In this document: one piece after another, positions 15,677-36,401 of the stretch
How the letters are laid out: each line of letters begins with the position of its first letter
Numbering within the stretch: the stretch's first letter is position 1
Assembly: GCA_019637395.1 (NCBI GenBank)
Contig: JAHBVR010000012.1
Location: forward strand, 65,842 to 129,841
Length of the DNA: 64,000 bases
DNA from: Vulcanimicrobiota bacterium
Lineage (GTDB): Bacteria; Vulcanimicrobiota; Xenobia; Xenobiales; JADMJV01
Reading direction: 5' to 3'
Notes under the pieces: model-generated
The model's input: the letters and a program-made list of their open reading frames with translations, nothing else
Databases searched by the model: none
Told to the model about the DNA's origin: nothing
Program-made: the position numbers and the translations under genes

Positions 15677-16705
<1,029 letters not shown>

Positions 16706-18180: not shown

Positions 18181-18186
18181 GAATCG

Positions 18187-18544
18187 CTTGATTTGGCCGA
18201 TAGCCAGCTCACTGATTGGGCTTCTAATCTTGGGAGCCTGTGGGAAAGAACCGCCTAAACGTTTCGGCAATAAAGTGACTGCCTATGGCGCTCCGGAATG
18301 CACCAGCAATCTGAAGAATATCGGCACCGCTTTAGAAATGTATAAAATGGATCACAGCCTGGCTCAGCTGGTTCCTCAATATTTCAAGGCCCTGCCCACC
18401 TGCCCCGCCGTGCAAAGTGACACGTATCCGGCAAGTTACCAACTGAAAGGCAGCCGCTACGAGTTTTGCTGCCGGGGTAACAACCACGACTTCGGAGGTG
18501 ATCGGCCGTCCTATTCCAGCGACGGAGGGTGCATCACCCGCTAG
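18187..18544 (+). CDS. Small Cys-rich lipoprotein (hypothetical)
   Basis: TTG start preceded by AGGA. Lipobox LILGAC. Six Cys in ~120 aa. Confidence 0.45.
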
Positions 18545-18622
18545 CGAGGACGCTCGCACGGTAACCCTGGCCCTCCAATCCTTGGCTGGCTTAAGTCATA
18601 CCTCAGAAAAGCCTCAGCCAAT

Positions 18623-19678
18623 TTGGTAGGGCCCGACGAGGTCGAGCGAGAAGCGCTGCCCTGGCCCATGAGACATCAACCAACCGAAGAAACCGCCAAG
18701 GCGGATGAAGCCTTTAAAAAGCGCCATTGGAAGGACGCGGAAGACTCTTTCCAACGCATCCTGACCCGAGTTCCCGAGCACATCGAGGCCTATCTGGGCC
18801 TGTTCGAAACCCAGGCGGTGTTGGGCCACTTCACCTCCAGTGTGCAGACGCTCTGGCAAGCGGTCGAGATCTGCGAGCAGACCAATCAGCTCGAACAAGG
18901 CCTGGAGATCATCGCCCGCATCCTGGAACTCAAACCGCATCACGAGCAGGCTCTACAAAAGCGCATCGATCTGCTCTTCGGTAACCAGCGCAACAGCGAG
19001 GCCGTGGCCTTCTCGCGTGATTTGGCCCAGTGGTATCTGGAAAACGACAACGTCGACGCGGCCATTCGCCTGCTTTTGCGGGCCTTCCAAATCAACCACG
19101 ACGATCTGGAGCTGACCCTGGTGCTGGCCGAGGCCTACCTCACCAACGGCCAGATGCGCGAAGCCACCGGGCTCTTTCGTCAGGTTATCCCCCACTTTCT
19201 GGAAGCCCAGGACTGGGAAAAAGCGGCCGGGATCATGCGCAGGCTCAGCCTCATGGACCCGAAAGATCCGCGCAACTTCATGGAGATGGGCGACCTCTAT
19301 ATCAAACTCGAACGTTATCAGGAAGCGGACCAGCAGTTCCGAGCGGTGTTGCGCATCGACCTGAACCATCGCGAAGCCCTGTTGAAAATCGCTGAAGTCT
19401 CGCTGCTGCGCAAACTTTTCCGAGATGCCTCGATGGTCTATAACCGACTTATCACCCTCAGTTCGGATGATGCGGAAGCCCACGAAGGCCTGGGCATGGT
19501 TTACAAAGGTCAGGGCATGCAGGCGGACGCGGCCAAACACTTGTTGATGGCCGGTCTGGCTTTCGCCGACAAAGACGTCAAGGCCCGCGCCCACAGCTGT
19601 TTCGCGGCCGTGCTGGAGATCGATCCGGCCAACAACATCGCTTCGCGTCAAATGAAAATTCTGGCTCCGGGAGTCTAA
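18623..19678 (+). CDS. TPR repeat protein
   Basis: Multiple 34-aa TPR-like repeats (AYLGL...W..A...Y...G....A...F). Start is uncertain (possibly ATG 18668). Confidence 0.65.
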   Translation: MVGPDEVEREALPWPMRHQPTEETAKADEAFKKRHWKDAEDSFQRILTRVPEHIEAYLGLFETQAVLGHFTSSVQTLWQAVEICEQTNQLEQGLEIIARILELKPHHEQALQKRIDLLFGNQRNSEAVAFSRDLAQWYLENDNVDAAIRLLLRAFQINHDDLELTLVLAEAYLTNGQMREATGLFRQVIPHFLEAQDWEKAAGIMRRLSLMDPKDPRNFMEMGDLYIKLERYQEADQQFRAVLRIDLNHREALLKIAEVSLLRKLFRDASMVYNRLITLSSDDAEAHEGLGMVYKGQGMQADAAKHLLMAGLAFADKDVKARAHSCFAAVLEIDPANNIASRQMKILAPGV

Positions 19679-19683
19679 GCACC

Positions 19684-20526
19684 ATGAAACTGCCCAAAGG
19701 CACAATCTTCATGCCGGAAGGCCTGCTGCTCAGCGCACCCGACCTCCAGTCGATGCTGGACAACCTGATGCAGGACCATTTCTCGGGATACTTCCGAGTG
19801 GAATTCCCGGGAGCCAACAAGGGCTTTGTCTTTCTCTCCCGCGGCCAGATGTTGCGCGCCTTCGAATGGACTCCCGACCTGATCAAGCTCTATACCCCGG
19901 AGCGACTCTTCGCCAAAGCGGGTGACGGCGCGGCTACTTCCTCTTACGTGCTGACGGCGGAAATGGCCGAGGCGCTGGCCGCCTCCTTCGCGCTGGAATC
20001 GGTGCCTGCAGGCAATTGGAGGGAAACCATTCAACAAGGGCGCCAGACCGGTTTCGTGGAGTTCGCTCAGCCCTTTGCCGGCACCATCCTCTACCATAAA
20101 GGCGAGCCCATTCAAGAGAGTCTGACCACTCACTACGGCGAAGTGGTCTGCGGTCGCGACGGCCTCAGCAAACTTCTCAATGAAGGCAGACCGTCGCTGG
20201 TGATGGCCGGAGACCCCGCCAAGATCGAAGAAAAGTGTAGCAAAGCCCACAAAGATCTGGATGCCATGCGAGAGGTGAAACTCAAGTCCGTGTCCGGCTT
20301 CTTCGCCACCAAAGACGCCCTCAAGGTCGAGGCGGACCTTGCCGCCGGCTGGGGGGTCAGTTCCAAAGGCTTCAACCTGGTGGTTGAATCTCTCGACGGA
20401 GAATGGCTGGGCACCCTCAAGGCGGTGACCGGCTGCAAGAAACCCGGGGTCATGGAAATCCCCCTCAAGGTCATGCAAGAGTGGGGAGCCAACGAAGACC
20501 AGGACGTGCTCGTCTACCCCGAATAG
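19684..20526 (+). CDS. Hypothetical protein
   Basis: 280-aa ORF with good codon bias, SD GGGAG upstream, 5 nt after the TPR gene. Confidence 0.45.
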   Translation: MKLPKGTIFMPEGLLLSAPDLQSMLDNLMQDHFSGYFRVEFPGANKGFVFLSRGQMLRAFEWTPDLIKLYTPERLFAKAGDGAATSSYVLTAEMAEALAASFALESVPAGNWRETIQQGRQTGFVEFAQPFAGTILYHKGEPIQESLTTHYGEVVCGRDGLSKLLNEGRPSLVMAGDPAKIEEKCSKAHKDLDAMREVKLKSVSGFFATKDALKVEADLAAGWGVSSKGFNLVVESLDGEWLGTLKAVTGCKKPGVMEIPLKVMQEWGANEDQDVLVYPE

Positions 20527-21249
20527 TCAGGCTTTAAATTCGGTTTCCAACGCTCTGGCCAAAGTTTCGCGCTGATCCGGCTTGAGCTGATTCAAGCTTT
20601 CGATGGCCGCATTGATACGCGGTTGAGCTTCGCGAGGAATAGTGCCTTTTTTTACTTCGCCGGCGATCTGATCTTTCAACTGGCCAAAAATATTGACCAC
20701 GAAGAAATGACCGGAGACGAAAGCTTTGCGATTCTTCACCTTGCCGAAAATGGTATCGGTCCTACCATTCACGCGTCCTGACATCCATTTGCGAGCGCCG
20801 ACGTCGAGGTCTACGTAACTTTTTTGCGTCTCGGGCGGCAACGTGTTCAGCAGCGTGCGCACTTCCGGCTTAAGTTGAGCCAGCCGCTCCGCCACCGTGC
20901 CAGGCGGGATTTTGCCCGTGACCAGACTGCTGGCCACCAATTGGCGCACGGCCGGGTCCTTGCTGGGCACCAATCCTCCGTGCTGCAATTGGGCGGCGGC
21001 GGCGGTGGGAATACCGGCCAACAAGCCGGCCACTCCGGTGGTGGTCAGACAGGCGGTGAAGACGGCTTTGCGCACCAAGTGCTTGCCCAGGCCGGCCAGC
21101 GGAGCAGGCGGAGCTTCGGCTGCACTCAGATTATCCGTCTCCAGAGCAATAAACTGGTCACGCGGTTCCGTTACATCGGGGCGGTCCTGGCGGGGCGGGG
21201 CGGCGTTGCGTAAAGGACTGGGCAAACCGGAGGCAAGCGGGGAAATCAT
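20527..21249 (-). CDS. Hypothetical single-pass membrane protein
   Basis: Internal ATG at 21249 (MISPLAS...). Central TM segment AVFTACLTTTGVAGLLAGI. Confidence 0.4.
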   Translation of the reverse strand: MISPLASGLPSPLRNAAPPRQDRPDVTEPRDQFIALETDNLSAAEAPPAPLAGLGKHLVRKAVFTACLTTTGVAGLLAGIPTAAAAQLQHGGLVPSKDPAVRQLVASSLVTGKIPPGTVAERLAQLKPEVRTLLNTLPPETQKSYVDLDVGARKWMSGRVNGRTDTIFGKVKNRKAFVSGHFFVVNIFGQLKDQIAGEVKKGTIPREAQPRINAAIESLNQLKPDQRETLARALETEFKA

Positions 21250-21398
21250 CCTACTGTCTTCTGGAGGTCTAGACTTAAGTCCTACGATTCCAAAATAAGT
21301 CTGGAAAATCGTGATCTGATTAACAATTCTTTCACCTCTGCCGTAGTATACTGGCAGTATAGGCACCGCCTAGAAAAGATGGAGTGGAGAAAACTCAC

Positions 21399-22010
21399 AT
21401 GCGCTTGTCCGTCACCGTAGGTTTAGTAGCTTGCCTGGTAGGAGTGGCCGCGGCTCAACCCAGCTACCCCACCTTCCAACAGCAGAACTACTCCAATCCC
21501 GCCAACAGTTACTCGATGCAGAACTCGCTGCCGGATCCCTACGGGCGCAACATCGCGCCGTATTTCAACAACCAGGAGGTTCGCCTGCCGAACCAGGCCT
21601 GGGCCGGACACGTTGGTGAACTGGTGCGCCAGGCCGATGGTGGTCTGTGGATCGTCAACACCAGCGGATTGATGCCCAAGGGCAGCACCGTCTCGATCAT
21701 GCGCAACGGGCTGATGGTCAACGGCGGTCAGGTGGTCGAATCGGGTGCCGGCACGGCGCTCATCAAGCCCTGGGCCAGCAGTGACGTCAAGGGCGGCGAC
21801 AATGTCTATCTCCAGTCGGTCGCCCCGGTGGCCATCGCCCCGGTCTACGATAAGTTCCAGGTCAATCGTCCCACCATGCAGGACCCGACCTACCTCTACT
21901 ACACCGACTATATGCATCAGGATCACCCGGGTCAGATGACCTCGCTGTTCAGCAACTATAACGGCTGGGGTTACTACCCCGGCTTTAACAACTACTACTA
22001 CCGCCGCTGA
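21399..22010 (+). CDS. Secreted hypothetical protein (Asn/Tyr-rich C-terminus)
   Basis: ATG 21399 with SD TGGAGA. Signal peptide MRLSVTVGLVACLVGVAAAQP. Confidence 0.5.
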   Translation: MRLSVTVGLVACLVGVAAAQPSYPTFQQQNYSNPANSYSMQNSLPDPYGRNIAPYFNNQEVRLPNQAWAGHVGELVRQADGGLWIVNTSGLMPKGSTVSIMRNGLMVNGGQVVESGAGTALIKPWASSDVKGGDNVYLQSVAPVAIAPVYDKFQVNRPTMQDPTYLYYTDYMHQDHPGQMTSLFSNYNGWGYYPGFNNYYYRR

Positions 22011-22047: not shown

Positions 22048-25000
22048 ATGAACTCGGCGCCTGTCAAAATCTCGAAGGCCGCCCGATTGCTAGCCGAATT
22101 GCTGGCAGTCAGCGGCCTTTCTCTTTCCAAGCCGGCCTGGAGCAATGGACTCCGATCTTACGCACGGTTGGCCGACGCCAGCCTGCCCACTGCCGATCTC
22201 GACCCCGTTCTCCAAGAGCTGGTGGACCATGATATGGTGGCTCGCCAAAACGACCAGGCCAAACTGGTGGACCGAGTTTGCGAAGAGATTCTTCTTCAGA
22301 TCCGCAAGGAAAGGCGGGCCGGACTGGTTTCCAGCGCTCTTTTCGAGCATGTTTTTCCGCTGCTGAGCAGCCCTTTTGACAAGGCTCAGGTGAACTTCCG
22401 CACCAGCCTGCTTTTCGGCACGGCCCGCTACATCAATCAGAGCTACCATCAATTTGAGGGGGCGGCCGGCAAACCACGGGAACTGGCCCAAATCGCCCGC
22501 GGCTGGCGCCACGCCGAGTCTTTTCAACAAGTGGATTCGCGCTGGCACCAGGCGCTGCTGGAAAAGTCGCTGGAATGGGCGGTGGAACGCTGCGAAGAAG
22601 CCCCCGGCGCGGTAGCCTTTTGTGAGCGCCAATCGCAACTGAACAACCAGGTTCTGCTTTACCTGGGGCTCTACTGGTTCACGCGCGGCAACGACGAGCA
22701 AACCAGACGCTTTCTGCAAGCGGCCAACCGCATCCCCAGCCTGCCGGGGCTGGTAGCTTTCGACCTCAAACGCTACGACACGGCACTGGAATGCTTCGCC
22801 CAGGCGGCCAGCCGCACCGAAAATCCGGTTCTTTACCTACCTATCACCCGCCTGGCCCGGGTTCTCTGCCTGTTGCGCCAGGGTGAGGCGGCCCAAGCTC
22901 AGGTCTGCTGCGGACCTGAGCTGCAGGGGGTCGATCCCTGGCTGCGCTGGCTGTGCGACCAGCGCCAGGGCAAAGCGCGCCATGCCCGGCCCAGTTTCAA
23001 CGCCGCCGAGGGAGCGGGAACTTCCCTCTGGCTGACGGCGGCCAGTTGCGCCCTGACGGTCAACGACCGAGAATTGCAGGGGCAATTGCGCGAAAGCGGC
23101 CAACAGTTAGCTCAGCAAGCCCATTCCCAAGGTTTTCTCTGGGTGGAACGGCAGCTGCAGCGCTTTCTGCACAAGTTCGCTCACCCTCGCGCCGAATGCT
23201 GCCCCTGGGACTGCGTGGTGCCCGAGCAGCCCTGGAAGCTACGCCTCAAACAGTTACTCGACCTGGCCCAGAAACCCCGTTTCGAGCCCGAGGAACGGAT
23301 CATCTGGACGGTCCGGCCGGCGGCCGCCGGCTGGGAAGCAGTGCCCAAGCTGCAAAGCCAGGCCAAGCGCGGCGGCTGGTCCAAAGGCCGCCAACTGGAA
23401 TTGTTCCGCACCCCTCCCGCCTGCGCCGATGAATACGATCTGCGCGTCTTCCGCCAGGCGCTGGCCCGCGATTTTACCTTGAGCGACGTATTCCACTCGC
23501 TGGTCGGCCATCCCCGAGTGTTCCACGAAGACACCGGCCAGCAAATCGAGATCGTGGAGGGCCGCCCCGAGTTTCAGGTCAACAAAGGCCCAAACGGATT
23601 GGCCGTGCGCATCCTGCCCAGTTGCCTGGACTCGAGCGGCCAGGTGATCGAGCTGGTCGGCCACACCACGCTAAAAGTCTATCGATTCGACCCGCTACTG
23701 CGAGAATTTAGCGAGATTCTGGGCGATGGCCTGGAAGTGCCCGAGAGCGAGCAGGCGGCTGTGCAATTGTTGCTGGATAAGCTGCCGGCTGAATTCGCCA
23801 TCGCTTCCGACCTGGCCAGCGAAGCGGTCCAGGAAGTGGCCGGCGACCCCACTCTCTACCTGCGCATCCGCCCCCTGCGTGAGGGCCTCGAATTGAACAT
23901 GCTGGTCCGCCCTTTAGGCGCGGATGGACCCGAGTATCCCCCCACCCACGGGGGCCAGAGGGTACTGTTGCGCCAGCATGGGCGCCGGGTCCAGGCGGTG
24001 CGCAATCTGGAGTCGGAGAGTCTGGCCTGCCAACGGGTGTTGGAGGCCTGCCCGGGCCTGAGGCCGGAGCAGGGCACGGCCCACTGGGTCACTCCCGACT
24101 TGCCGGCCAGCCTGGAGGTTCTCGAGCAAATCGGACGCCTGCCGGCCGAGGCCCTGACGGTGGAATGGCCGGAAGGACAATCGCTGCGCATCCGCCACCG
24201 GGTGGGCGGCGAAAATCTGCGCCTGCAGGCCCAGACGCAAGGCGACTGGTTCCATGTGCAGGGACAGTTGGAACTATCGGCCGAGGAACACTGGCAACTT
24301 CAGGACTTGTTGGAGCGCATGCGCAATCAAACGGGTCGATTCATCGCCCTGGGCTCGGGCGAGTTCCTGGCTCTGACCGAAGAGTTGCGCCGCCGCCTAC
24401 AAGAACTCTCCAACCTGGTCGAACCGGCCAAAGGCAAAGCCATCAAAGTTCATGGTCTGCTGATCGGGGCTCTGCAAGAAATCGCCCCCACCGAAGGTGA
24501 CGAGCACTTTCAGGAACGTCTGGCGCGCCTCAACGACAGCCACTCGATCAAGCCTCCGCTCCCCAAGACTTTCCAGGCCGAGTTGCGCGCTTACCAGAGG
24601 GAAGGCTTCGAGTGGCTGAGCCAGCGGGCTCACTGGGGGGTGGGAGCCTGTCTTTCAGACGATATGGGGCTGGGCAAAACCCTGCAAACTCTGGCTCTGT
24701 TGGTGCACCGGGCGCCGCTGGGCCCGGCCCTGGTGATTGCTCCCACCTCGGTATGTGGCAACTGGTTGGAGGAAGCGCGCCGTTTCGCCCCCACCCTGCG
24801 GGTCCACTGGCTGCTCGACGGGGAGCGCCAGAGCGTGGTGGAAAAAGCGGAAGCTTTCGATGTCCTGCTCGTCAGCTACGGCGTGGTCGTGCGCGAACTC
24901 AAGATTTTGAGCGCGCGCACCTTCGCCACTTTGGTGGTGGACGAAGCCCAGGCCATCAAGAATCACGCCACCCAGCGTTTTCAAGCGGTGCTCAAGATTC

Positions 25001-25938
25001 CCTCCGACTTTCGAGTGGTCACCACCGGAACCCCGGTGGAAAACCGCCTGGAAGAACTGTGGGCGCTCTTCCGTTTCCTCAATCCGGGACTGTTGGGCAG
25101 CCTGGAACGTTTCCGCGAGCGCTTTATCGCTCCCATCGAAGCCGGTCAGGCACCGGCCCGCCAGCACCTCAAGAAGCTGGTCCATCCGTTCCTGTTGAGG
25201 CGCACCAAGACCCAGGTGCTGCACGAATTGCCGGCGCGCACCGATATCACGCTGGAAGTTCCGCTCAGCCCCTCCGAGCGCACCTTTTACGAGGCCTTGC
25301 GCACGCGGGCGCTGGAGAAACTCAACGGCAGCGAGGTCGAAGCCATGCAGGTGCTGGCCGAGTTGACCCGCTTGCGCCGAGCCTGCTGCCATCCCTCTCT
25401 GGTCGAGCCCAAAAAGAAGGCGGGCGAAGGTTCCAAGTTGGAAGCCGTGCGCGAATTGCTCAACGACATGCGCGAGGGAGGCCATCGCGCTCTGATCTTC
25501 AGCCAGTTCGTCGACCATCTGCAGCTTTTGCGCCAGGAACTGGACCAGCAGCAGTTGAGCTATCAGTACCTCGACGGCACCACCCCGGCCCAGGAACGCA
25601 GCCGCCGGGTGAAGGCTTTTCAGGCGGGTGATGGCGAGGTGTTCCTCATCAGTTTGCGCGCCGGTGGCTTCGGCTTGAATCTGACCGGAGCGGATTACGT
25701 GATCCACATGGATCCCTGGTGGAACCCGGCGGTCGAGGATCAAGCTTCGGACCGAGCACACCGCATCGGGCAGCTGCGTCCGGTCACCGTCTACCGGCTG
25801 GTAGCCAAGGACACGGTAGAGGAAAAAATCCTGGCGCTGCACCGCCAAAAGCGAGAGCTGGCTCAAGGCCTGCTGGAAGGGGCAGAGGAAGGACTGCGCC
25901 TCAGCGCCAGCGAGCTGCTGGCCTTGATGCAGGCTTGA
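22048..25938 (+). CDS. SNF2-family DNA-dependent ATPase/helicase with a long N-terminal extension (bacterial SNF2-associated region)
   Basis: C-terminal half carries SNF2_N motifs (LRAYQREGFEWL, DDMGLGKTLQTLALL, DEAQAIKN, TGTPVENRLEELWALFRFLNPG) and the helicase-C motif (QASDRAHRIGQ). About 800 aa of N-terminal extension. 1296 aa in total. Confidence 0.85.
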   Translation: MNSAPVKISKAARLLAELLAVSGLSLSKPAWSNGLRSYARLADASLPTADLDPVLQELVDHDMVARQNDQAKLVDRVCEEILLQIRKERRAGLVSSALFEHVFPLLSSPFDKAQVNFRTSLLFGTARYINQSYHQFEGAAGKPRELAQIARGWRHAESFQQVDSRWHQALLEKSLEWAVERCEEAPGAVAFCERQSQLNNQVLLYLGLYWFTRGNDEQTRRFLQAANRIPSLPGLVAFDLKRYDTALECFAQAASRTENPVLYLPITRLARVLCLLRQGEAAQAQVCCGPELQGVDPWLRWLCDQRQGKARHARPSFNAAEGAGTSLWLTAASCALTVNDRELQGQLRESGQQLAQQAHSQGFLWVERQLQRFLHKFAHPRAECCPWDCVVPEQPWKLRLKQLLDLAQKPRFEPEERIIWTVRPAAAGWEAVPKLQSQAKRGGWSKGRQLELFRTPPACADEYDLRVFRQALARDFTLSDVFHSLVGHPRVFHEDTGQQIEIVEGRPEFQVNKGPNGLAVRILPSCLDSSGQVIELVGHTTLKVYRFDPLLREFSEILGDGLEVPESEQAAVQLLLDKLPAEFAIASDLASEAVQEVAGDPTLYLRIRPLREGLELNMLVRPLGADGPEYPPTHGGQRVLLRQHGRRVQAVRNLESESLACQRVLEACPGLRPEQGTAHWVTPDLPASLEVLEQIGRLPAEALTVEWPEGQSLRIRHRVGGENLRLQAQTQGDWFHVQGQLELSAEEHWQLQDLLERMRNQTGRFIALGSGEFLALTEELRRRLQELSNLVEPAKGKAIKVHGLLIGALQEIAPTEGDEHFQERLARLNDSHSIKPPLPKTFQAELRAYQREGFEWLSQRAHWGVGACLSDDMGLGKTLQTLALLVHRAPLGPALVIAPTSVCGNWLEEARRFAPTLRVHWLLDGERQSVVEKAEAFDVLLVSYGVVVRELKILSARTFATLVVDEAQAIKNHATQRFQAVLKIPSDFRVVTTGTPVENRLEELWALFRFLNPGLLGSLERFRERFIAPIEAGQAPARQHLKKLVHPFLLRRTKTQVLHELPARTDITLEVPLSPSERTFYEALRTRALEKLNGSEVEAMQVLAELTRLRRACCHPSLVEPKKKAGEGSKLEAVRELLNDMREGGHRALIFSQFVDHLQLLRQELDQQQLSYQYLDGTTPAQERSRRVKAFQAGDGEVFLISLRAGGFGLNLTGADYVIHMDPWWNPAVEDQASDRAHRIGQLRPVTVYRLVAKDTVEEKILALHRQKRELAQGLLEGAEEGLRLSASELLALMQA

Positions 25939-25939
25939 C

Positions 25940-26368
25940 ATGCGGCTCTGCTTCCTGATCCTGCTGGCCTCGGTGGCGCTGGCCGAAGAGCCGGCCAAGG
26001 ACGACCTGAGCGAACTTTACTCCAAGTTGGGAGCGGTTTCTCCCAAGGTGGTCAAAGCCGGTTTCACGATTTTGCACGTGGAGTTTGACCGGCTCGCGCC
26101 CGGTGGCGAGTACACCCTCAAGCGCCAACTTTCGGCTCAGAACAAATACAAGCTGGTCGGCGTGGGCTCCCAAGGCATCACCGATCTGACGCTGCGCCTG
26201 ATCGACTCCAAGGGCAAGGTTGAAGCCAACGATCCCCGCCCCGACAGCGTGGCCATCGTGAACCTGGTGCCTAAGATCAGCGGGATGTTCACCATTAAGC
26301 TGGGAGCCCGCCGAATCACCGGCAACCAACCTTACTTCTTCTGCCTGATCGCCAGTAAGCCCAAGTAG
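25940..26368 (+). CDS. Small secreted protein (hypothetical), translationally coupled to the upstream SNF2 gene
   Basis: The ATG is 1 nt after the SNF2 TGA. Signal peptide MRLCFLILLASVALA. Confidence 0.5.
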   Translation: MRLCFLILLASVALAEEPAKDDLSELYSKLGAVSPKVVKAGFTILHVEFDRLAPGGEYTLKRQLSAQNKYKLVGVGSQGITDLTLRLIDSKGKVEANDPRPDSVAIVNLVPKISGMFTIKLGARRITGNQPYFFCLIASKPK

Positions 26369-26533
26369 ACGAGTCAGGGTGCGAAACAGAAATAAAATTC
26401 TCGACCCTGGAGCAGGCAATATATGAACGAAGACATTCACAACTGTTACGAAAAGTTCAACCTTTCCGAGGCCATTTCATTAACGTCTACAAGCAGCTGA
26501 GTATCCTCTGAATATACCCCCACAGGGGACGGC

Positions 26534-27772
26534 TTGGAGGGAATTATGGCGCTCAGCCTCGGATCAATGGGAAACTTCTTTAGTCGCGCAATGGACTTCT
26601 CGAGTCCCTCCAGAGCTGCCGGCCCGAGCCTGACCGCCGGACAACCTGTTGGAAACTATGACGGTGCCAATTTCTCCGCCGAGATGTTGGATGGGATGCA
26701 AAACCTCCTGGTTGATTCGATCGCTCAGACCGTTCAACAGATTCAGTTGGCCCAAAGCTTCGGTGCCGATGCCTCCACCTCGTTGCAGCAACTGCAGCAA
26801 GAGTACCAGGCGGCCCAGATGCAGGGAGTGGCCTTGCCGCCGGAACTGCAGCAGGCGGTCGAACAGATTCTGAGCCAGGCCGGCTTGCTGCCCGGGATGG
26901 GCCAGGACGGCCTCACCCCCGGAGCGGGCGAGGGGGCAGGCAGCGGTGCTCCGGGCGGCACCGGCAGCAGCAGCGGCGGGGGTGGCTCTCCGCAGGCCGC
27001 CGCGGACGGCGGCGGTCAAGCGGCCGCCACCCAGAACGACGCTCCCGGGGCCGGCCCGGAGCAAACCTGGAAGCTGGCCGGGCTGTTCGACCAGGCCATG
27101 GCCAACGAACCGGCCGATTTCCGCAACCCCGAAGCCTGGGCCCAGGGGGATACGGCCGGTAACTGTTCGTCAGTGGCCGTGATCAAGGCCGCCACCGCCG
27201 AAAGTGGCAACGCCATCTTCCAGAGCGTGCAGAAAACCGAGGAGGGCTACCTGGTCACCACTCAGGACGGCCGCACCGTCAAGCTCAGCCAGGCGGAACT
27301 GGCCGCCGCCGAAAAGACGGCCGACTTCGAAGGGCCCGATAGCGCCTCCAAAGCCCAGGCGGTGATGGCCGCTGGCGTCATGGCCAAGAACTACCAGGCT
27401 GAACACCCGAACCTGACCTACCAGCAGGCCCTGAACGCCACCAACGGAGTGGTTGACCCGGTCTCCAATCCCAAGGGCGAAGGCCGCTTCCCTGAGCAGG
27501 CCGCCCACGACCTGGGCATTCCTTTTACGCGCACCAGCGTGCAGACGGCCGTCAATGACGTCAGAGCCGGCCGGGGCAGCGAAGCCGCCATCATCTACAA
27601 CGACCGCCACGCCGAAGTGGTCACCGGCAACCGCCAGGGAGGCGCCAGAGTCGACGACTACGGTCGCAGCACCAACAGCAACGGCCAGATCAGCAAGAAC
27701 GGCCAGACCAGCCAGGCCACCACCGGCATCGAACTCCACAGCAAACCCAAGCCCGCCCCCAAAGCCGCCTGA
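26534..27772 (+). CDS. Hypothetical protein with a Gln-rich N-terminus, a Gly/Ser linker and a C-terminal domain with a possible Cys/His pair
   Basis: 412 aa with no signal peptide. GNCSSVAVIKA ... DRHAEVV ... RVDDYG is compatible with a papain-like C/H/D arrangement, but this is speculative. Confidence 0.45.
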   Translation: MEGIMALSLGSMGNFFSRAMDFSSPSRAAGPSLTAGQPVGNYDGANFSAEMLDGMQNLLVDSIAQTVQQIQLAQSFGADASTSLQQLQQEYQAAQMQGVALPPELQQAVEQILSQAGLLPGMGQDGLTPGAGEGAGSGAPGGTGSSSGGGGSPQAAADGGGQAAATQNDAPGAGPEQTWKLAGLFDQAMANEPADFRNPEAWAQGDTAGNCSSVAVIKAATAESGNAIFQSVQKTEEGYLVTTQDGRTVKLSQAELAAAEKTADFEGPDSASKAQAVMAAGVMAKNYQAEHPNLTYQQALNATNGVVDPVSNPKGEGRFPEQAAHDLGIPFTRTSVQTAVNDVRAGRGSEAAIIYNDRHAEVVTGNRQGGARVDDYGRSTNSNGQISKNGQTSQATTGIELHSKPKPAPKAA

Positions 27773-27817
27773 CCCGGCGGGAAGGCCCTCCGGGCTTGTC
27801 TGTTGCATAGAAACTAG

Positions 27818-30800
27818 ATGAGCTCAAAGAAGGCCTCGGGGGGAGTGGCGGAGACTTCCACGCCCCGGGCGCGTTACAAAGCGTTGGGCTCCATGATCCA
27901 TGGGCTGTTGGAGCGATTGGGGGAGCACACTCGAGTGCTTTCTCAGCTCAAGAGCGCTCACTGCAATCCCAAGAGCGTTTACTGGGAGCTGCCCGCTTTT
28001 GTAGCCCCCTTGTTGGGCCAGCTGGCCCTCGAGTTAAAGGCGGCCACCGAGGAGTTGGGGGGCTGGCTCTTCGTGGAGGAACTCTCCAGAGCCATCACCT
28101 GTGAAAAGAACGTGGTGGGCAACCTGATTCGGCTGGCTTCGCTGCTGCAAGCCTTCGGCTGTCGGTTGGCCGAGGGCAAGCTCATCTGCACCGACGCCTC
28201 TCGCCAGCAACTCCTGGAACATCTGCGGCTGAGCGGGCGCGTACCCGGGCCACTCAGCCAGTTGCAGGCCGATTGCCAGGAATTTTTCGGCCGTTCTGTG
28301 GACGAAAAGACGCTGGCCTCGCTGATCGGACAGACGCTCTCGCCGGGCGTGGTGGCCGAGGTGGACAAGAAGTTGGTCGTTTTCAGCCTGGATCGACCTC
28401 CCTCGTGCCGGGATCTTTTGCTGGGCTGCCTGCGTCTCTGGAGAGGCCCCCTGAATTTGCGCGAGTTATTGAGCAAACTCAAGAAACTGGAAGTCTTTCA
28501 GGCCACCGCCTTGGAACTCGAAATGGAGGTCCACGGCCTCAAAGCTGAAGGCAAAGTCGGCGAGCGAGAAGGGATGTTTTTTCTGAGCGACAGCCGGCCC
28601 GGCCGCCTCGATCAGCTCGACCCGGCCGAGGTAGCCGATCTGGTTTTCCAGACGCTCTTTGAAATCGCCACCGCCGACGGAGTGGTGCGCTCGGAAGAAA
28701 TGTCCCTGATCGGCAACTTGCTGGCGGTGGAATTCGAGTTGCCCGCCGATGTGCGCGAGCCTTTCGAAACCCTGCTGGGTTTGGCCGTGCATCGCTCCCT
28801 GGACCATCAGCAACTGGGCCAACCTCTTTCAGCCCAAAAAGTGGCCGGCTTCCCCCAAGAATTGCGCGACCGGGTCTTCCGTGGAGCGGTGGCGGTGGCC
28901 TTTGTCGACCTCGAGATCCACGACCACGAACGCCAGGCCCTGGAAGGGGTGGCCCGGCGGCTGAGCACCTCGCTACCCGTGCCAGCCGTGGTCGAGCGCT
29001 TTGCCGAGATGTGCCGCCCTCCCTACGTCGACTATGCCTACTTCGGCATTTTGCCCGACCGTTACGACCCCGACCGATTGCATGAAAAATTCCTGGCCCT
29101 GCATCAGCACTACCTGGAGAAACTGGCCGGAGAGGATCAGCCGCCAGCCCAGGAAATCCGGCGCCTGCAACGGCTGCTCGGTGAATTCTACCGGCAACTC
29201 CCCTCTCAGCCCGCTCCCTGGTTGGTTGGCCTGGATCTGGAGAAGCCGGCCCTGCCTGCGCATAGCCTCTTGCCCCTCCATTGTTTCCTGCGCGTGGGGC
29301 GCTGCGATGGTCCCCTCAGCGAGAGGGAAGCCCGGGTTATTTCGCGATTGGTGCGTGGCAGTTTGGATAACCTGCAGGATCGCGCCCTATGGAATCTACA
29401 AACCCGCCCGCTGGCCAACCTGCAGCTGCCTGCTCCCGAGCTGGACGCGACCAGTTCGAGGCTGCGCATGCTCAGCTTCAGTCTGGTGGTGGCGCTCTGC
29501 GACGGGCCTCTCAACGTGGAAAAGTCGCGCGAACTGCTCTCTTTGGCCAGCGACCTGGGGGTCTCGGAGCGCAGCTTTCAGGTACTGCACCAACTGGAAC
29601 AGGCCGCCCGGCGACATCTTCAGGAGGATCCAGCCCTGGAGCAACTGGAGCGTTTGGAACTGGCTCTGGCCGAAGCCGAGCAACTGCCTGTGGACTCAAG
29701 CGCAGGCGCAACGGCCAGGGCCACGCCGCTGGTGTTGCCGGAATTGGAGCCGGGAGGTCATCCTTATCTGGTGGTGATCCGCCCCTCAGGGCGGCACAAT
29801 TTCATCGTCCACCTGCGGGTGCGCTCCGAACTCAACGACGTCCCCTTTCTCCAGGAGCAATTGAACGCGGCCATCCAGGCCCGGCCCTGGTTACGCGACC
29901 AGTGCGGTGGGCGCAGCTGGTTTCTCTGCAAGGGGGTGAGCAACTGCCTGCGCCTGCTCCATGAAGTGAAAGACAGTCCCTTTGAAGTGCAGTGGCCCCA
30001 CGGCCAGCCCTTCCAGGTTTTGGGCAAAGCCGGACTGCATAACCTGCGAGCCACCATCGGCCAAAAACAAGGCTGGTTCGAAATCGGCGGCAAACTACAG
30101 TTAGGTCAGGGACACCAGATCGGCTTGCTGGACTTGCTCGAGCGGGTGCGTCACCATCCCGACGCCATCGCCGTGGCTCCCGATACCTTCGTGCAGATCG
30201 ACGACGCCTTGCGCGGGCAGTTAGAAACGCTGAACTCGCTCTTACCCGAGGACATGAACGCCGGTACCATCGACCCTTTGCGGGCTCGCCTGGTGGCCGG
30301 TCAGGTACATTTTTTCGAGGACCAGACCAACAATCACGAGTTCTCCCGCCTGGCCGCCCTGATCGAGGAGGCCGGCGAAATTCGCCCCGACCTCCCCGCC
30401 GAGCTCTGGGAACGCCTGCGTGACTATCAAAAAGAAGGCGTGGAGTGGATGCTGCGCACTCTCCACGCCGGTCTGGGCGCCTGTTTGGCCGACGACATGG
30501 GCCTGGGCAAGACCTTGCAAACCCTTTGCGTCCTCTATCACCGACGCGCTCAGGGCCTCAGCCTGGTGGTGGCGCCTACTTCCGTTACCTATAACTGGAA
30601 AGAGCAGGCGCAGCGTTTTTTACCCGACCTGCGCGTCATGCTCTACGAGGGGCCGGGCCCGGTCCGCCATCTGGCGGCGGAGAAGCTGGACGAGTTTGAA
30701 GTCATCGTGGTCAGTTACGGCATTTTTCACAAGGATCACGCGTTGCTGGGCCAGCGAGAGTGGAACTGCCTGGTGCTGGACGAAGCTCAGAAAATCAAAA

Positions 30801-31762
30801 ATCCTACCTCGGCCACGGCCCGGAGCGCCTTCCAAATGCATGCGCGCGCCCGCCTGGCCACGACCGGCACGCCCATCGAAAACCATCTGCTGGAACTGTG
30901 GAGTCTGATGAACTTCCTCAATCCCGGCTTGCTCGGCTCGCAAAACAGCTTTCGCCAGACCTACCTGAGCCGGAACGAAGAGGGAGCGGAGAACGAGCGG
31001 CTGGTCCGGCTGCGCTCGCAAGTGGCCCACTTTATCCTGCGCCGGCGCAAGCAAATGGTGGCCCCGCAACTGCCGGCCAAGTTGGAAACAGTGCACCGTA
31101 TCGACCTTTCCAGCCAGGAGCGCGAATTCTATAACCAGATCCGCCGTGGCGCGCTGCAAATGCAAAAAGAAGATCGAATCAGCCTGCTGACGGCGCTCAC
31201 GCGCCTGCGCCAGGCCTGTTGTGATCCGGCGCTGGTGGATGAGCAATGGATGGCGGCCAGCTCCAAGATCGTGACGGCCGTGGAGATGCTGGCGGAAGTC
31301 AGCGCTGAGGGCCACCAAATCCTGGTTTTCAGCCAGTTCGTGAGCCTGCTCAAGCGCCTGGCCCGCCAGTTGGACGAAGAAGGCCTGCCCTACCGAACTC
31401 TTTACGGCTCCACGGTGGTGGAAGAACGGCGCGCCCTGGTGGAGGATTTCCAGCAGGGCAACTTCCGTATCTTCCTGATCAGCCTGAAAGCTGGCGGCAC
31501 CGGGCTGACACTGACCCGAGCCGACTACGTGTTGCACCTGGACCCCTGGTGGAATCCGGCTGTTGAGGATCAAGCCACGGACCGTGCCCATCGCATCGGC
31601 CAGACCCAGACGGTCAACGTCTACCGTCTGATCGCCCGCGAAACCGTCGAGGAAAAAGTGCTGGAATTGCACCAGAGCAAACGCGAGTTAGCCGAAGCAG
31701 TGCTGGCTCAGGACGGCTCTCCCAGCGTGCTCAGCCTCGAGGACCTGAAAGCTCTACTCTAG
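27818..31762 (+). CDS. SNF2-family ATPase/helicase, paralog 2, with TerB-like repeats in the N-terminal extension
   Basis: SNF2 motifs (LRDYQKEGVEWML, DDMGLGKTLQTLCVL, DEAQKIKNP, TGTPIENHLLELWSLMNFLNPG, QATDRAHRIGQ). The N-terminus carries two segments with an A.ADG....E..L pattern (ATADGVVRSEEMSLIGNL; ALCDGPLNVEKSRELLSLASDLG) that resemble TerB/DjlA-N. 1314 aa. Confidence 0.85.
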   Translation: MSSKKASGGVAETSTPRARYKALGSMIHGLLERLGEHTRVLSQLKSAHCNPKSVYWELPAFVAPLLGQLALELKAATEELGGWLFVEELSRAITCEKNVVGNLIRLASLLQAFGCRLAEGKLICTDASRQQLLEHLRLSGRVPGPLSQLQADCQEFFGRSVDEKTLASLIGQTLSPGVVAEVDKKLVVFSLDRPPSCRDLLLGCLRLWRGPLNLRELLSKLKKLEVFQATALELEMEVHGLKAEGKVGEREGMFFLSDSRPGRLDQLDPAEVADLVFQTLFEIATADGVVRSEEMSLIGNLLAVEFELPADVREPFETLLGLAVHRSLDHQQLGQPLSAQKVAGFPQELRDRVFRGAVAVAFVDLEIHDHERQALEGVARRLSTSLPVPAVVERFAEMCRPPYVDYAYFGILPDRYDPDRLHEKFLALHQHYLEKLAGEDQPPAQEIRRLQRLLGEFYRQLPSQPAPWLVGLDLEKPALPAHSLLPLHCFLRVGRCDGPLSEREARVISRLVRGSLDNLQDRALWNLQTRPLANLQLPAPELDATSSRLRMLSFSLVVALCDGPLNVEKSRELLSLASDLGVSERSFQVLHQLEQAARRHLQEDPALEQLERLELALAEAEQLPVDSSAGATARATPLVLPELEPGGHPYLVVIRPSGRHNFIVHLRVRSELNDVPFLQEQLNAAIQARPWLRDQCGGRSWFLCKGVSNCLRLLHEVKDSPFEVQWPHGQPFQVLGKAGLHNLRATIGQKQGWFEIGGKLQLGQGHQIGLLDLLERVRHHPDAIAVAPDTFVQIDDALRGQLETLNSLLPEDMNAGTIDPLRARLVAGQVHFFEDQTNNHEFSRLAALIEEAGEIRPDLPAELWERLRDYQKEGVEWMLRTLHAGLGACLADDMGLGKTLQTLCVLYHRRAQGLSLVVAPTSVTYNWKEQAQRFLPDLRVMLYEGPGPVRHLAAEKLDEFEVIVVSYGIFHKDHALLGQREWNCLVLDEAQKIKNPTSATARSAFQMHARARLATTGTPIENHLLELWSLMNFLNPGLLGSQNSFRQTYLSRNEEGAENERLVRLRSQVAHFILRRRKQMVAPQLPAKLETVHRIDLSSQEREFYNQIRRGALQMQKEDRISLLTALTRLRQACCDPALVDEQWMAASSKIVTAVEMLAEVSAEGHQILVFSQFVSLLKRLARQLDEEGLPYRTLYGSTVVEERRALVEDFQQGNFRIFLISLKAGGTGLTLTRADYVLHLDPWWNPAVEDQATDRAHRIGQTQTVNVYRLIARETVEEKVLELHQSKRELAEAVLAQDGSPSVLSLEDLKALL

Positions 31763-32504
31763 ACTGCAAAAAGGCTACCACGCGCTGGAATTCGGCTTCC
31801 AGTTCGGGCAACCGGTCCTTTTGCAGGGCTTTCTCCTGCTCACCCAACATTTCAGCCAGGCGTAGCGCTCCCACCATGGCCGCGCTGCCCTTGAGCGAAT
31901 GCAGCGTGTGCGAACTATAGTTGAAGGCCAGGCTGGCCAGTTGGCGCCGTCCCTCAGCCGTGAACGTCTCGATCAGTTCGCGTTCGAACTCGGCATCATC
32001 CATGCAGGAGCGATTGAGTGCCTCCAGATCGACAGGAACTCCCGACTGCTGAGCCGGACAAGGGCAGCGCAAGAGCCGCCCATCGTCCAGGCGCGCTCCC
32101 AACTGAGCCAGCAAATAAGCCAGCAACGGACCGCGCAAGCTTTCTTCGTCAACCGTCCCGGCGGCCTCGAAGGTAAGCTCGGCGTCGTCCCCGCCGATAC
32201 GCAGGGGCGCGAATCCTCGCCAGCCCAGAGCCAGCAGCAGATATTCCAGGGCCTGAGGACGGCCCCGGCGCAGGGTTGGCAGGCCTTCCGCCCACTGCAA
32301 CTGCAGGTCATGGCGCTGGTTCAGATCCCGGGCCCAAACTTGCAGGTCAAAAAGTTGCGGGCCCTCATCGCGGCGCGAGAACTCGCAAGCCCAGCGGCCC
32401 TGGCGGGCCAACCAGCGCAAGTCCGGGAGAGAGAGCGGCTCCTGCAACCCCCCCTCCAGACCGGCCCAGAGCTCCTCCCAAACTTCCAGAGGCAAAAGCT
32501 TCAC
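31731..32504 (-). CDS. Hpt (histidine phosphotransfer) domain protein with an unknown N-terminal domain
   Basis: C-terminal HTLHSLKGSAAMVGA (HxxKG Hpt motif). The 3' end overlaps the convergent SNF2 gene by 32 bp. Confidence 0.55.
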   Translation of the reverse strand: MKLLPLEVWEELWAGLEGGLQEPLSLPDLRWLARQGRWACEFSRRDEGPQLFDLQVWARDLNQRHDLQLQWAEGLPTLRRGRPQALEYLLLALGWRGFAPLRIGGDDAELTFEAAGTVDEESLRGPLLAYLLAQLGARLDDGRLLRCPCPAQQSGVPVDLEALNRSCMDDAEFERELIETFTAEGRRQLASLAFNYSSHTLHSLKGSAAMVGALRLAEMLGEQEKALQKDRLPELEAEFQRVVAFLQSRVELSGPRG

Positions 32505-32890
32505 GAGGCCGTCACTTTAGCCAGTAGCGCCCTGACCCGCTCCACCAACTCAGCCGGGTCAAAGGGCTTGGCCAGAAAGTCATCCGCCCCGGCGCGCCGG
32601 GCCTGCTCGGCAATATCGCTTTCCGTAATCGAGCTGAAAATTAGCAGGGGGATATGTTTGTAGTCGAGGTGAAATTTTAGCAGCCGGCACAAGGCCAGGC
32701 CGTGCAGGGACGGTAGAATCAGGTCCATCAACAAGAGGCCCGGCTGGTTCCGCTGCACCGCGCGATAAGCTTCCAGTCCATCGTGAAAGAGGGTTACCTC
32801 GAGTTGGGGTAATTGTAAGAGAGCGCGCTTGACCCCCAGCGCCTGGGTGGGGCTGTCCTCAACCACGTAAACTTGAATGGTTTCGCTCAT
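32501..32890 (-). CDS. CheY-like single-domain response regulator (receiver)
   Basis: Internal ATG at 32890 (MSETIQVYVVEDSP...LLLMDLILP...ADDFLAKP). The track ORF is over-extended upstream into pilC. Confidence 0.7.
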   Translation of the reverse strand: MSETIQVYVVEDSPTQALGVKRALLQLPQLEVTLFHDGLEAYRAVQRNQPGLLLMDLILPSLHGLALCRLLKFHLDYKHIPLLIFSSITESDIAEQARRAGADDFLAKPFDPAELVERVRALLAKVTAS

Positions 32891-32983
32891 GCTGGGGGCC
32901 GTTCGCGCTTGTCCAGGCATTTCCCCGTGGTTCCCAGGACCCCCCCAAATCAGGCCGAACCCCCAAGGGCAGGAGACGGGATA

Positions 32984-34189
32984 TTGGCGAGATTTACTTA
33001 CGAGGCTCAGGACGCTGAAAATCATACGGTGACGGGAACGCTGCAGGCGGCCGATCGGAATGCCGCCCTGCAAACACTCTCGGAAAAGTATCCCCTGGTC
33101 ACCGAATTGACGGAGCTGATCCCCAAGAGATCACTTCTAGCGATGATGCGGCGCGGTCCGAGCACGGAACAAATTCTGGGCGTCTACCAGCAATTGGCGG
33201 TGGCCACCGGAGCCGGCGTACCCCTCAAACAGAGCCTGGACACCATGGCTGAAGATTCCGACAGCCCGCGCCTGCAGGCGGTGCTCTTTCAAATGTCGGC
33301 CTCGCTCTCCTCCGGGCTGACCTTGAGCCAGGCCATGAGCGAGCACCCTGATGTTTTTGCTCCCTACCAGCCCAAATTGATTCAGGCCGGCGAGGTCTCC
33401 GGCAAGATGGCCGAGATCCTGGCCCAGCTCGCGCTCGATATGGAAGGTCGCGAAGCTCTCACCAGCCAGGTTCGCTCGGCCATCGCCTATCCGATCTTCG
33501 TGTTGGTGGTGGCGGGCCTTTTGTCGGCCGCCATGCTGGGCTGGGGGGTGCCGCAAATCAAAGGGGTCTTCGACGCCATGGGAGCCGAACTGCCTCTGCC
33601 CACGCGCTTTTTAGTGTTGGTCGGCTTGAGCCTCTCGCAAATGTGGTGGATGTGGATATTGGGTCTGGCCCTGGCGGTATGGCTCTACCAGCGCCTCTCA
33701 AAACATCCTCGAGCACGGCGGTTCGTGGAGCGGGTGGTATTGGTCAGCTGGCCTTTCGGCGAAGTCTACCGCCTGTTGAACGTCTCCCTCTTCGCCCGCA
33801 CCCTGGGCCTGCTTTATCGGAGTGGTTTGCCCCTTTCGACTGCTTTGGAGGTGCTCGGGGAAGCCACTTCCAGTTTGCGTATGGTCGAAGTCATCCAGGT
33901 TCTGAGGCGCCGGGTAACCCACGGCGAGCTGCTTTCTTCCGCCATGCGGGGGAGCGGTTTCTTTCCCTCGATGGCGGTGGAGATGGTTTCCACTGGCGAG
34001 AGTTCCGGTTCGCTCGACAAAATGCTCCACGAGTTGGATCGTTTTTATACGCGGCGTTGCGAGCACGCCATTAAAGCCCTGACCAGCCTGATCGAGCCGG
34101 CTCTGACGGTGGTGGTGGGCATCCTCCTGGGCGGTGTGATTTTAGGATTGGCCTTGCCCTTCCTCAATCTGCCGGCCCTGATGATGTGA
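32984..34189 (+). CDS. pilC: Type IV pilus assembly protein PilC / T2SS GspF family inner-membrane platform protein
   Basis: Two GspF repeats. N-terminus ARFTYEAQD, typical of PilC. TTG start at 32984 chosen to avoid overlap with the divergent receiver gene. Confidence 0.8.
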   Translation: MARFTYEAQDAENHTVTGTLQAADRNAALQTLSEKYPLVTELTELIPKRSLLAMMRRGPSTEQILGVYQQLAVATGAGVPLKQSLDTMAEDSDSPRLQAVLFQMSASLSSGLTLSQAMSEHPDVFAPYQPKLIQAGEVSGKMAEILAQLALDMEGREALTSQVRSAIAYPIFVLVVAGLLSAAMLGWGVPQIKGVFDAMGAELPLPTRFLVLVGLSLSQMWWMWILGLALAVWLYQRLSKHPRARRFVERVVLVSWPFGEVYRLLNVSLFARTLGLLYRSGLPLSTALEVLGEATSSLRMVEVIQVLRRRVTHGELLSSAMRGSGFFPSMAVEMVSTGESSGSLDKMLHELDRFYTRRCEHAIKALTSLIEPALTVVVGILLGGVILGLALPFLNLPALMM

Positions 34190-34557
34190 GCATGCGGCGC
34201 GGCTTTCTCTTGATGCAAATGGTAGTCGCCTTCGCATTGCTGTTTGTCAGCGGGATGTCGATGTTTACCACTCTGGCCAGCAGCGACCGCGGCTACAGCC
34301 AGGCCATTCAAACCCGGGTGGCTCTGCGCCTGTGCAGCGAAACCCTGGAGTCGCTACGCGCCGGCACGCTCAAGCCCACGCTGGGAACGCAAAGTCTGGG
34401 CAGCGTCCGCCAGACGGCCGGCAAATCCGCCACCGTTTATACGCCCCGGCTGGTGGTCAGCAGCAGCGGAACTATGCTCTTGGTGCGCTCCCAGGTCAGT
34501 TGGGTGGAAGGCCGGCGCACACATTTGGTGGAGCTGAAGACCCTTGTCGCGCCCTGA
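34186..34557 (+). CDS. Prepilin-like (pseudopilin) protein with a Q at +5 of the variant N-terminal motif
   Basis: MRRGFLLMQMVVAFALLFVSG follows a class-III-signal-like pattern but has Gln where the conserved Glu5 normally sits. GTGA overlap with the pilC stop. Confidence 0.5.
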   Translation: MSMRRGFLLMQMVVAFALLFVSGMSMFTTLASSDRGYSQAIQTRVALRLCSETLESLRAGTLKPTLGTQSLGSVRQTAGKSATVYTPRLVVSSSGTMLLVRSQVSWVEGRRTHLVELKTLVAP

Positions 34558-34564
34558 AGCTGGA

Positions 34565-36369: not shown

Positions 36370-36401
36370 GGAAGGCTTGGGGGCTATCCGAAGCAGAGGC
36401 G

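Follow-up and report, generated by a model that had tools for sequence, protein, structure and literature searches.

Bacterial ATPases of the SNF2 family are, to our knowledge, almost uncharacterised beyond RapA and the members found in defence systems. One of those that have been studied, pneumococcal Snf2, is cited in PMC7899983 as a transcriptional repressor of pilus genes (Basset 2017). On the defence side, the Shango system consists of the TerB-like protein SngA, the ATPase SngB and the helicase SngC, which are encoded by three separate genes (PMC10250203; bioRxiv 10.1101/2022.05.11.491447). Here, we describe two SNF2 ATPases, SNF2-1 and SNF2-2, whose genes lie in a 64,000-nucleotide stretch of DNA (the window; positions 65,842 to 129,841 of contig JAHBVR010000012.1, assembly GCA_019637395.1) from a Vulcanimicrobiota bacterium of the Xenobiales. 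We know of no cultured member of the Xenobiales. The host phylum has a single cultivated species (PMC9758169). Together with a gene for a small secreted protein that lies between them, the two ATPase genes form an operon that is chromosomal, vertically inherited and confined to this uncultured soil lineage (Xenobiales, Eremiobacterota/Vulcanimicrobiota). The ATPases are a clade-restricted form of the bacterial SNF2 type whose N-terminal regions are novel, and the locus includes a slot for accessory genes. As to function, we consider it most likely, with about an even chance of being right, that SNF2-1 and SNF2-2 are DNA translocases, passed on vertically as a pair, whose role is regulatory or lies in nucleoid maintenance or remodelling.

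A first-pass annotation of the region had placed four open reading frames (ORFs) at 22048-25938, 25940-26368, 26534-27772 and 27818-31762, all on the plus strand, and these are indeed present. The outer two encode SNF2-1 (1,296 amino acids) and SNF2-2 (1,314 amino acids), respectively. In both proteins, the Pfam domains SNF2-rel_dom (E 4.5e-64 in SNF2-1, 4.2e-65 in SNF2-2) and Helicase_C score above their gathering cut-offs; in SNF2-1, the former covers residues 849-1118 and the latter residues 1130-1241. The Walker A motif GLGKT, the DEAQ and TGTP motifs and motif VI (DRAHRIGQ) are intact in both, and because all ATPase motifs are kept, SNF2-1 and SNF2-2 look catalytically competent. Searched against the PDB, the ATPase cores (24592-25938 in SNF2-1 and 30425-31762 in SNF2-2, both on the plus strand) find the same top match, 1z63 (SSO1653), with E-values of 2e-108 and 6e-96, respectively.

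The two ATPases are also related to each other, with 42% identity between residues 665-1294 of SNF2-1 and 686-1314 of SNF2-2 (E 9e-140). The resemblance between WPEGQSLRIRHR and WPHGQPFQVLGK that had first been pointed out by eye is real. The paralogy does extend N-terminal of the ATPase core, as had been proposed, over a span of some 170-220 amino acids and not the suggested ~300. That is, a profile-profile alignment with hhalign (five orthologues each) detects homology only from residues 678 and 699 on (678-1293 versus 699-1313), and BLAST against the orthologues places its start at 628/633 at best. The segment immediately preceding the core, residues 678-848 of SNF2-1 (24079-24591, plus strand) and the paralogous residues 699-869 of SNF2-2 (29912-30424, plus strand), can be regarded as a pre-ATPase module, and SNF2 models built on other bacteria, from PADLOC as well as NCBIfam, extend into it too. 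Since these models cover the same region, the module is family-wide and not peculiar to the two proteins. On these sequence comparisons, we place SNF2-1 and SNF2-2 as old paralogues within the prokaryotic SSO1653-like SNF2 family.

Upstream of this module, the two proteins go separate ways. When the N-terminal regions of the two proteins were compared with Pfam segment by segment, a limit as loose as E 5 yielded only TerB and sub-threshold tetratricopeptide repeat (TPR) matches, the latter in the SNF2-1 extension (TPR_2, E 0.0095). PDB sequences searched with profiles built from 11-12 orthologues of each region gave nothing under E 0.1, and neither these nor the Pfam searches detected a HARP, nuclease or RNA polymerase-interaction domain. 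For SNF2-1, an AlphaFold2 (AF2) model of residues 1-850 with three sequences as input reached a confidence (pLDDT, predicted local distance difference test) of 41.5, too low for a fold search. Within this model, only residues 10-87 (22075-22308, plus strand) stand out with a pLDDT of ~60-85, forming a helix-helix-helix-beta hairpin arrangement which we tentatively take as a possible winged-helix module. The clade-specific extension that follows (22315-24078, plus strand), for which only two homologues and no PDB sequence match were found, is predicted to be all-alpha over residues 90-380, where the sub-threshold TPR matches lie, and mixed alpha/beta over residues 400-677.

In SNF2-2, residues 278-382 (28649-28963, plus strand) match the TerB domain PF05099 with 43 bits (gathering cut-off 24.4, E 6.5e-11), and D287, E293 and E294 of this domain are invariant in 12 orthologues. 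TerB domains are predicted to serve as ligand, metal or membrane-proximal sensor modules. The first-pass annotation had spotted two TerB-like repeats in this protein; the first copy passes the Pfam cut-off, and the second, at residues ~484-605 (29267-29632, plus strand), stays below it with 18 bits (E 0.0038). The likeness of the second region to the first is weak by hhalign (E 0.067), as is its match to the NCBIfam DjlA model, which is sub-threshold at E 6.6e-6 and has no separately significant stretch. Nonetheless, D497-G498-P499 and D562-G563-P564 of this region are invariant among the orthologues. Between the two TerB regions, at 29033-29080 (residues 406-421), lies YAYFGILPDRYDPDRL, which looks like the beginning of a J domain, only without the HPD motif. 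Combined with the weak DjlA match, this sequence hints at a DjlA-like arrangement of TerB plus a degenerate J domain in SNF2-2.

How firmly the locus is anchored became evident from 14 related contigs (numbered L007 to L020), all from Xenobiales metagenomes, onto which the window proteins were mapped by tblastn. These orthologues were recovered via the small secreted protein, as the word-indexed protein search has little sensitivity when queried with the long N-termini. Eleven relatives cover both positions and encode the two ATPases (L007, L009, L010, L011, L012, L013, L014, L017, L018, L019 and L020), and every one of them has SNF2-1, the small gene and SNF2-2 in the same order as the window; in two more, L008 and L015, the locus is truncated by the end of the contig. 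The supposition that the SNF2 genes are linked paralogues was therefore well founded. Across the relatives, SNF2-1 orthologues are 62-96% identical and SNF2-2 orthologues 63-90%. The most divergent relative, L016, shows a different picture: here, the C-terminus of a ~205-amino-acid secreted protein, otherwise encoded just upstream of SNF2-1, is followed directly by the small gene, SNF2-1 is absent, and SNF2-2 comes three other genes further on.

Strong purifying selection acts on both ATPases. Ratios of nonsynonymous to synonymous substitution rates (dN/dS), which are approximate given that the comparison of the window with L012 yields a saturated dS of ~1.1, are 0.06 for whole SNF2-1 and 0.11 for whole SNF2-2. 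For the extensions, they amount to 0.07-0.19 overall and to 0.07-0.08 in SNF2-1, and because of this purifying selection we consider both extensions functional protein and not the product of drift.

At the same time, the extensions are exceedingly rare. The word-indexed search among 5.8e9 clusters retrieved two homologues for residues 1-731 of SNF2-1 and only the query itself for the N-terminus of SNF2-2; an exhaustive phmmer search of 1.84 billion representatives with residues 1-640 of SNF2-2 gave a single cluster, P0030, at 59% identity. In these searches, no sequence homologue of either extension was detected outside the clade. All taxonomic labels on members and contigs of the small-protein family read Eremiobacteraeota, Vulcanimicrobiota or Xenobiales (the last in one ENA record). 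Exact-sequence matches were found on metagenome contigs, and the small protein also occurs, as KF760_20410 on a 324-kb contig, in a metagenome-assembled genome labelled Candidatus Eremiobacteraeota. Neither the small protein nor the SNF2-2 N-terminus has a relative among IMG/VR viral contigs, and PLSDB plasmids contain none of the SNF2-2 N-terminus or of the C-terminal domain of the 408-amino-acid protein encoded ahead of SNF2-2. No composition shift, tRNA or integrase was seen near the locus, and the 64-kb window as a whole gave no Rfam match or tRNA. In short, the SNF2-1/small gene/SNF2-2 locus shows core-chromosome synteny and is not an island.

The gene between the two ATPases (25940-26368, plus strand) encodes a protein of 142 amino acids. 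Its ATG does lie one nucleotide past the SNF2-1 stop codon, as noted early on (TGA-c-ATG), and the signal peptide ascribed to it, a hydrophobic N-terminus followed by A-x-A, is kept in 25 of 25 family members. The signal peptide is followed by one helix and then by a beta sandwich with a fold match to solved members of the PPC/collagen-binding/GOLD-like type; no Pfam family matches. The likeness to PPC, collagen-binding and GOLD domains is one of fold, at a mere 4-16% sequence identity, and unlike PPC domains, the 142-amino-acid protein is not joined to a protease but stands alone and is secreted. Its family comprises 26 clusters, all at least 49% identical, with a dN/dS of 0.23. Among the relatives, the spacer between SNF2-1 and the small gene varies from -8 to +32 nucleotides, and wherever nothing is inserted further downstream, just 10-62 nucleotides separate the small gene from SNF2-2. 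This spacing suggests that the small gene and SNF2-2 are on one transcript. We regard the small protein as an operon passenger and probably not as part of the motor.

The slot between the small gene and SNF2-2 is the variable part of the locus. It is empty in L007, L009, L015, L017 and L020, and holds the gene for the 408-amino-acid protein in the window, L010, L018 and L019. In L012, this gene is joined by one for an M13 peptidase, and L013 carries a 3D-domain protein, a 408-like gene and an M13 peptidase. Other relatives have unrelated cargo, namely two coiled-coil genes (L008 and L011), an ECH fragment (L014), or two paralogous membrane proteins plus a Ser-rich protein (L016). The last three are encoded at 831-4352 of L016 and comprise 396- and 507-amino-acid proteins with predicted membrane segments (32% identical to each other) and a Ser-rich protein of 226 amino acids. 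No notable repeats were seen around the slot. Overall, the window and 5 of 13 informative relatives (L010, L012, L013, L018 and L019) carry the 408-amino-acid gene and eight lack it, among them L009, the closest relative; because L009, whose SNF2-1 is 96% identical to that of the window, does without it, we consider the gene accessory. The first-pass annotation had raised the question of whether the four genes co-vary as a cassette. They do not, since the 408-amino-acid gene is a strain-variable filler, the very outcome that had been named there as a refutation.

The ORF in question had been read as 412 amino acids long, with a Gln-rich N-terminus, a Gly/Ser linker and a possible Cys/His/Asp arrangement. 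While these features stand, the length is likely 408 amino acids: the most likely start is the ATG at 26546, which has a GGAGG 7 nucleotides upstream, and gene callers on identical contigs also give 408 amino acids. The gene (26546-27772, plus strand) is preceded by a 177-nucleotide spacer (26369-26545) of 46% G+C (0.458, compared to 0.61 for the window), which probably carries the gene's own promoter. Directly 3′ of the gene, at 27773-27817, an inverted repeat rich in G+C (CCCGG...CCGGG) precedes a run that contains T; the repeat was not listed in a scan for consensus terminators, and promoter and terminator scans were at chance level. Taken together, inverted repeat, A+T-rich spacer and GGAGG suggest that the 408-amino-acid gene is a transcription unit of its own.

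The protein itself is Gln-rich and helical over residues 1-110. Residues 111-175 form a linker of Gly, Ser, Ala and Pro, and residues 176-408 the C-terminal domain. It has no Pfam, PDB sequence or PADLOC match. Q200, C207, H355 and D370/D371 are invariant, although the four orthologues compared are all at least 69% identical. The spacing of the Q, C, H and D residues is reminiscent of papain-like enzymes, making the protein a candidate papain-like (clan CA) Cys/His/Asp enzyme. Its dN/dS is 0.23 overall and 0.65 in the linker, and a metagenome scan, keyed on low-complexity Gln-rich patterns, recovered one locus. Again, this protein appears to be an operon passenger and is not a likely motor subunit.

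What might the two ATPases do? Given the intact ATPase motifs, SNF2-1 and SNF2-2 would most likely be ATP-driven translocases on double-stranded DNA, which could displace or reposition DNA-bound proteins such as RNA polymerase, repressors or nucleoid proteins. The outcome would be a role in transcriptional regulation or nucleoid maintenance, comparable in kind to that of RapA or the pneumococcal pilus repressor Snf2. Each N-terminal region would provide its own paralogue with separate targeting or control; SNF2-1 might be targeted via its winged-helix and helical-repeat region, and the SNF2-2 motor may be gated by one or two TerB sensor domains upon a stress signal. We favour such a housekeeping or regulatory role because of the fixed chromosomal position, the conserved flanks, the strong purifying selection and the lack of defence partners. 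Several observations weigh against it. It is family membership that points to a putative translocase or remodelling role for the two proteins; the N-terminal regions have no PDB or Pfam match beyond TerB, and the SNF2-1 model has the low pLDDT mentioned above. Nor does the reading explain why the gene of a cytoplasmic ATPase should be coupled so tightly to that of a secreted protein. Moreover, SNF2-2 of L016 stands without SNF2-1 at the site, and the pair may thus not act together. Indeed, SNF2-1 and SNF2-2 might be mere syntenic neighbours with unrelated jobs, the small gene belonging functionally with the upstream ~205-amino-acid secreted protein, as its direct succession to a ~205-like gene in L016 would suggest. 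We consider this a real contender, if clearly the less probable one: the paralogues have nothing in common upstream of the family-wide pre-ATPase module, and unrelated genes insert between the ATPases without either being lost, but the order and tight spacing persist in the window and all 11 spanning relatives, with SNF2-1 down to ~62% identity, and where no insert is present the close spacing of the small gene and SNF2-2 speaks for a common transcript.

Defence systems often contain SNF2 ATPases. The locus could also be an anti-phage or anti-plasmid module, in which a TerB-gated SNF2-2 and its partner SNF2-1 survey or strip invading DNA, as a fused analogue of Shango or of the SNF2-based Zorya, DISARM and Dpd systems. 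The variable gene slot inside the locus would fit, as would the fact that two defence systems, Shango and Bunzi, have TerB domains (PMC10250203; bioRxiv 10.1101/2022.05.11.491447), and the PADLOC SNF2 models 'DpdE' and 'ZorD' score up to 605 bits. These matches, however, lie on the SNF2 core, and PADLOC, which had been proposed as a check for defence, returned only such generic matches, without the partner genes of any defence system. Measured against the curated NCBIfam models, ZorD of type I Zorya (NF041790) reaches 236 and 239 bits of a cut-off of 1500, and no ZorA, ZorB or ZorC was found by PADLOC among the 14 neighbouring and intervening proteins scanned. DpdE (NF041062) gives 35 bits for SNF2-1 against a cut-off of 500 and is not listed for SNF2-2, with no DpdA/B/C partner among the neighbours. 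DrmD of DISARM yields 66, 98 and 45 bits against cut-offs of 950 (NF038318) and 610 (NF038317), DrmD_b accounting for 66 and 98 of 950; PADLOC detected no DrmA/DrmB/DrmC or methylase partner and no nuclease, either in neighbouring genes or within the N-terminal regions. For Shango, no Sng model matched these regions even with the limit relaxed to E 1, or was among the 25 best PADLOC matches of either full-length protein, and neither a SngA/SngB partner nor an extra ATPase gene is present. Further arguments against defence are the chromosomal position and flanking genes, which are conserved throughout the relatives recovered, the dN/dS of 0.06-0.11 for the two ATPases, the lack of viral or plasmid relatives, and a slot cargo that consists of secreted or membrane proteins and not of defence genes. 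We therefore think it unlikely that the locus serves in defence.

Two further readings seem to us improbable to a similar degree. One is that SNF2-1 and SNF2-2 are DNA-repair or replication-fork translocases (Rad54-, SMARCAL1- or Mfd-like) for stress survival in oligotrophic habitats, with TerB reporting metal or oxidative stress. The intact SNF2 core, the TerB domain and the housekeeping-like conservation agree with it, but no repair genes are adjacent, none of the HARP, nuclease and RNA polymerase-interaction domains looked for above was detected in the N-terminal regions, and nothing separates repair from a regulatory role. The other, on which we would put as little weight, is an undescribed Xenobiales module for sensing stress or invaders, in which two translocases would cooperate in response to an envelope or metal signal relayed by TerB and the slot would be a landing site for exchangeable secreted effectors; equally doubtful is the corresponding view of the Cys/His/Asp protein, the M13 peptidases, the 3D-domain protein and the membrane proteins as its cargo.

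Neither ATPase falls into a curated SNF2 subfamily. The first-pass annotation had not recognised a named system here, and rightly so, as the cut-offs of all curated SNF2 subfamilies are missed. It had also brought up a RapA-like housekeeping duplication; housekeeping fits better than defence, but a RapA-like identity is not supported, since the RapA/HepA model NF003426 gives just 26 and 24 bits with a cut-off of 576. The pilus expression-regulating Snf2 helicase (NF053675) scores 397 and 384 bits of the required 1100, and the SCO1167/SCO6262 helicase (NF058637) 437 and 448 of 1200.

The flanks of the operon differ in their conservation. Upstream, a block encoding a ~590-amino-acid protein, a TPR protein, a 280-amino-acid protein and the ~205-amino-acid secreted protein is kept in nine relatives, all those whose contigs extend to it, and genes for DUF979 and a 5′-nucleotidase lie upstream in both the window and L007. 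The TPR gene (18623-19678, plus strand; probably with its true start at about 18668, giving 336 amino acids), the first of the conserved block in the window and matched by Pfam TPR families, has orthologues of 69-92% identity directly upstream in nine relatives. Next is the gene of the 280-amino-acid cytoplasmic protein (19684-20526, plus strand), with orthologues 48-80% identical in nine loci. Three of these orthologues show sub-threshold DUF4388 (PATAN-like) matches (E 0.03-0.0026) at the N-terminus, and by eye the C-terminus looks like two AbrB-like hairpins. An accessory ORF on the minus strand (20527-21366; 279 amino acids, ~240 as called on relatives) follows only in the window, L010 and L013, marking a second variable slot; it has no Pfam or PADLOC match. 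The secreted protein of ~205 amino acids (21384-22010, plus strand), the most conserved member of the block, was found in 12 loci, at 90-96% identity in close and 73-81% in distant relatives; it has a Tyr/Gly/Pro/Asn-rich tail, a dN/dS of 0.05, and no Pfam, NCBIfam or PADLOC match.

Further upstream, ~5 kb (13488-18600) separate the gene of a 571-amino-acid protein from the TPR gene, and contain a GDSL lipase, a 444-amino-acid ORF, an aldo-keto reductase and two small ORFs. Because the 571-amino-acid and TPR genes are adjacent in five relatives (L010, L012, L017, L019 and L020), this stretch looks like an insertion in the present genome. At 9394-11104, on the minus strand, the gene of an MbnB/TglH/ChrH enzyme for modification of ribosomally synthesized and post-translationally modified peptides (10259-11104, E 1e-103) adjoins that of a DUF2063 protein (9394-10563), a pairing typical of methanobactin- or bufferin-like peptide clusters. 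An MbnB gene also precedes the conserved block in L012, L017 and L019.

Downstream of SNF2-2, an adjacent pair of genes for an Hpt protein (31731-32504) and a receiver protein (32501-32890), both on the minus strand, had been considered together with the ATPases. Pfam (Hpt, Response_reg) confirms both genes, but they are not part of the unit: the pair travels with a cluster resembling type II secretion systems and type IV pili (T2SS/T4P-like) and occurs downstream of SNF2-2 in one subclade only, and L007, L015 and L019 have other genes in place of the pair and the T2SS/T4P-like block. As the link is not conserved, we rejected a functional tie of the ATPases to either. In the window, the block (31731-39037) comprises Hpt, receiver, T2SSF, small pilin-like ORFs, DUF7305, PilM and an MshEN-T2SSE ATPase; in L019, other genes fill the stretch from SNF2-2 to a B_lectin gene.

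The immediate value of these data lies mainly in annotation. PADLOC 'DpdE/ZorD' matches at a locus such as this are generic SNF2 matches and not evidence of defence, and the Gly/Ser-rich protein and the Hpt/receiver pair belong outside the SNF2 unit. Beyond that, the locus offers a conserved SNF2 pair with two different, sequence-unique N-terminal control regions, one of which carries TerB. If it is true that TerB gates a DNA motor, SNF2-2 would offer a tangible case in which to study the signal that TerB senses.

Compared to what is known, the defence ATPases ZorD, DrmD and DpdE share a homologous SNF2 core with the window proteins, with the ZorD structure 8qy7 among the PDB matches, and differ in that their obligatory partner genes are absent here and the NCBIfam equivalog cut-offs are missed. 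The first-pass annotation had brought up TerB-SNF2 fusions; the documented link between TerB and a helicase is Shango. It pairs a TerB domain with an SF2 helicase, much as SNF2-2 combines TerB with an SNF2 motor, but does so with separate genes in a defence hotspot, whereas the window has TerB fused to the motor in a core-genome context. The best-scoring curated bacterial SNF2 families, NF053675 and NF058637 (384-448 bits), align into the pre-ATPase module, yet their N-terminal regions are unrelated to those of SNF2-1 and SNF2-2, and the pilus-like cluster next to the operon is not a conserved link. With the SSO1653-like ATPase, the Rad54-like core of Sulfolobus solfataricus (1z63), both proteins have in common the two-lobe SNF2 ATPase and all motifs. 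There, 1z63 is a 500-residue core alone, while SNF2-1 and SNF2-2 each add ~850 N-terminal residues, ~680-700 of them without a detectable relative outside the clade. For the proposed role, the functional analogy is RapA/HepA, whose N-terminal domain is absent from the window ATPases and which is itself a housekeeping bacterial SNF2 ATPase, acting in RNA polymerase recycling.

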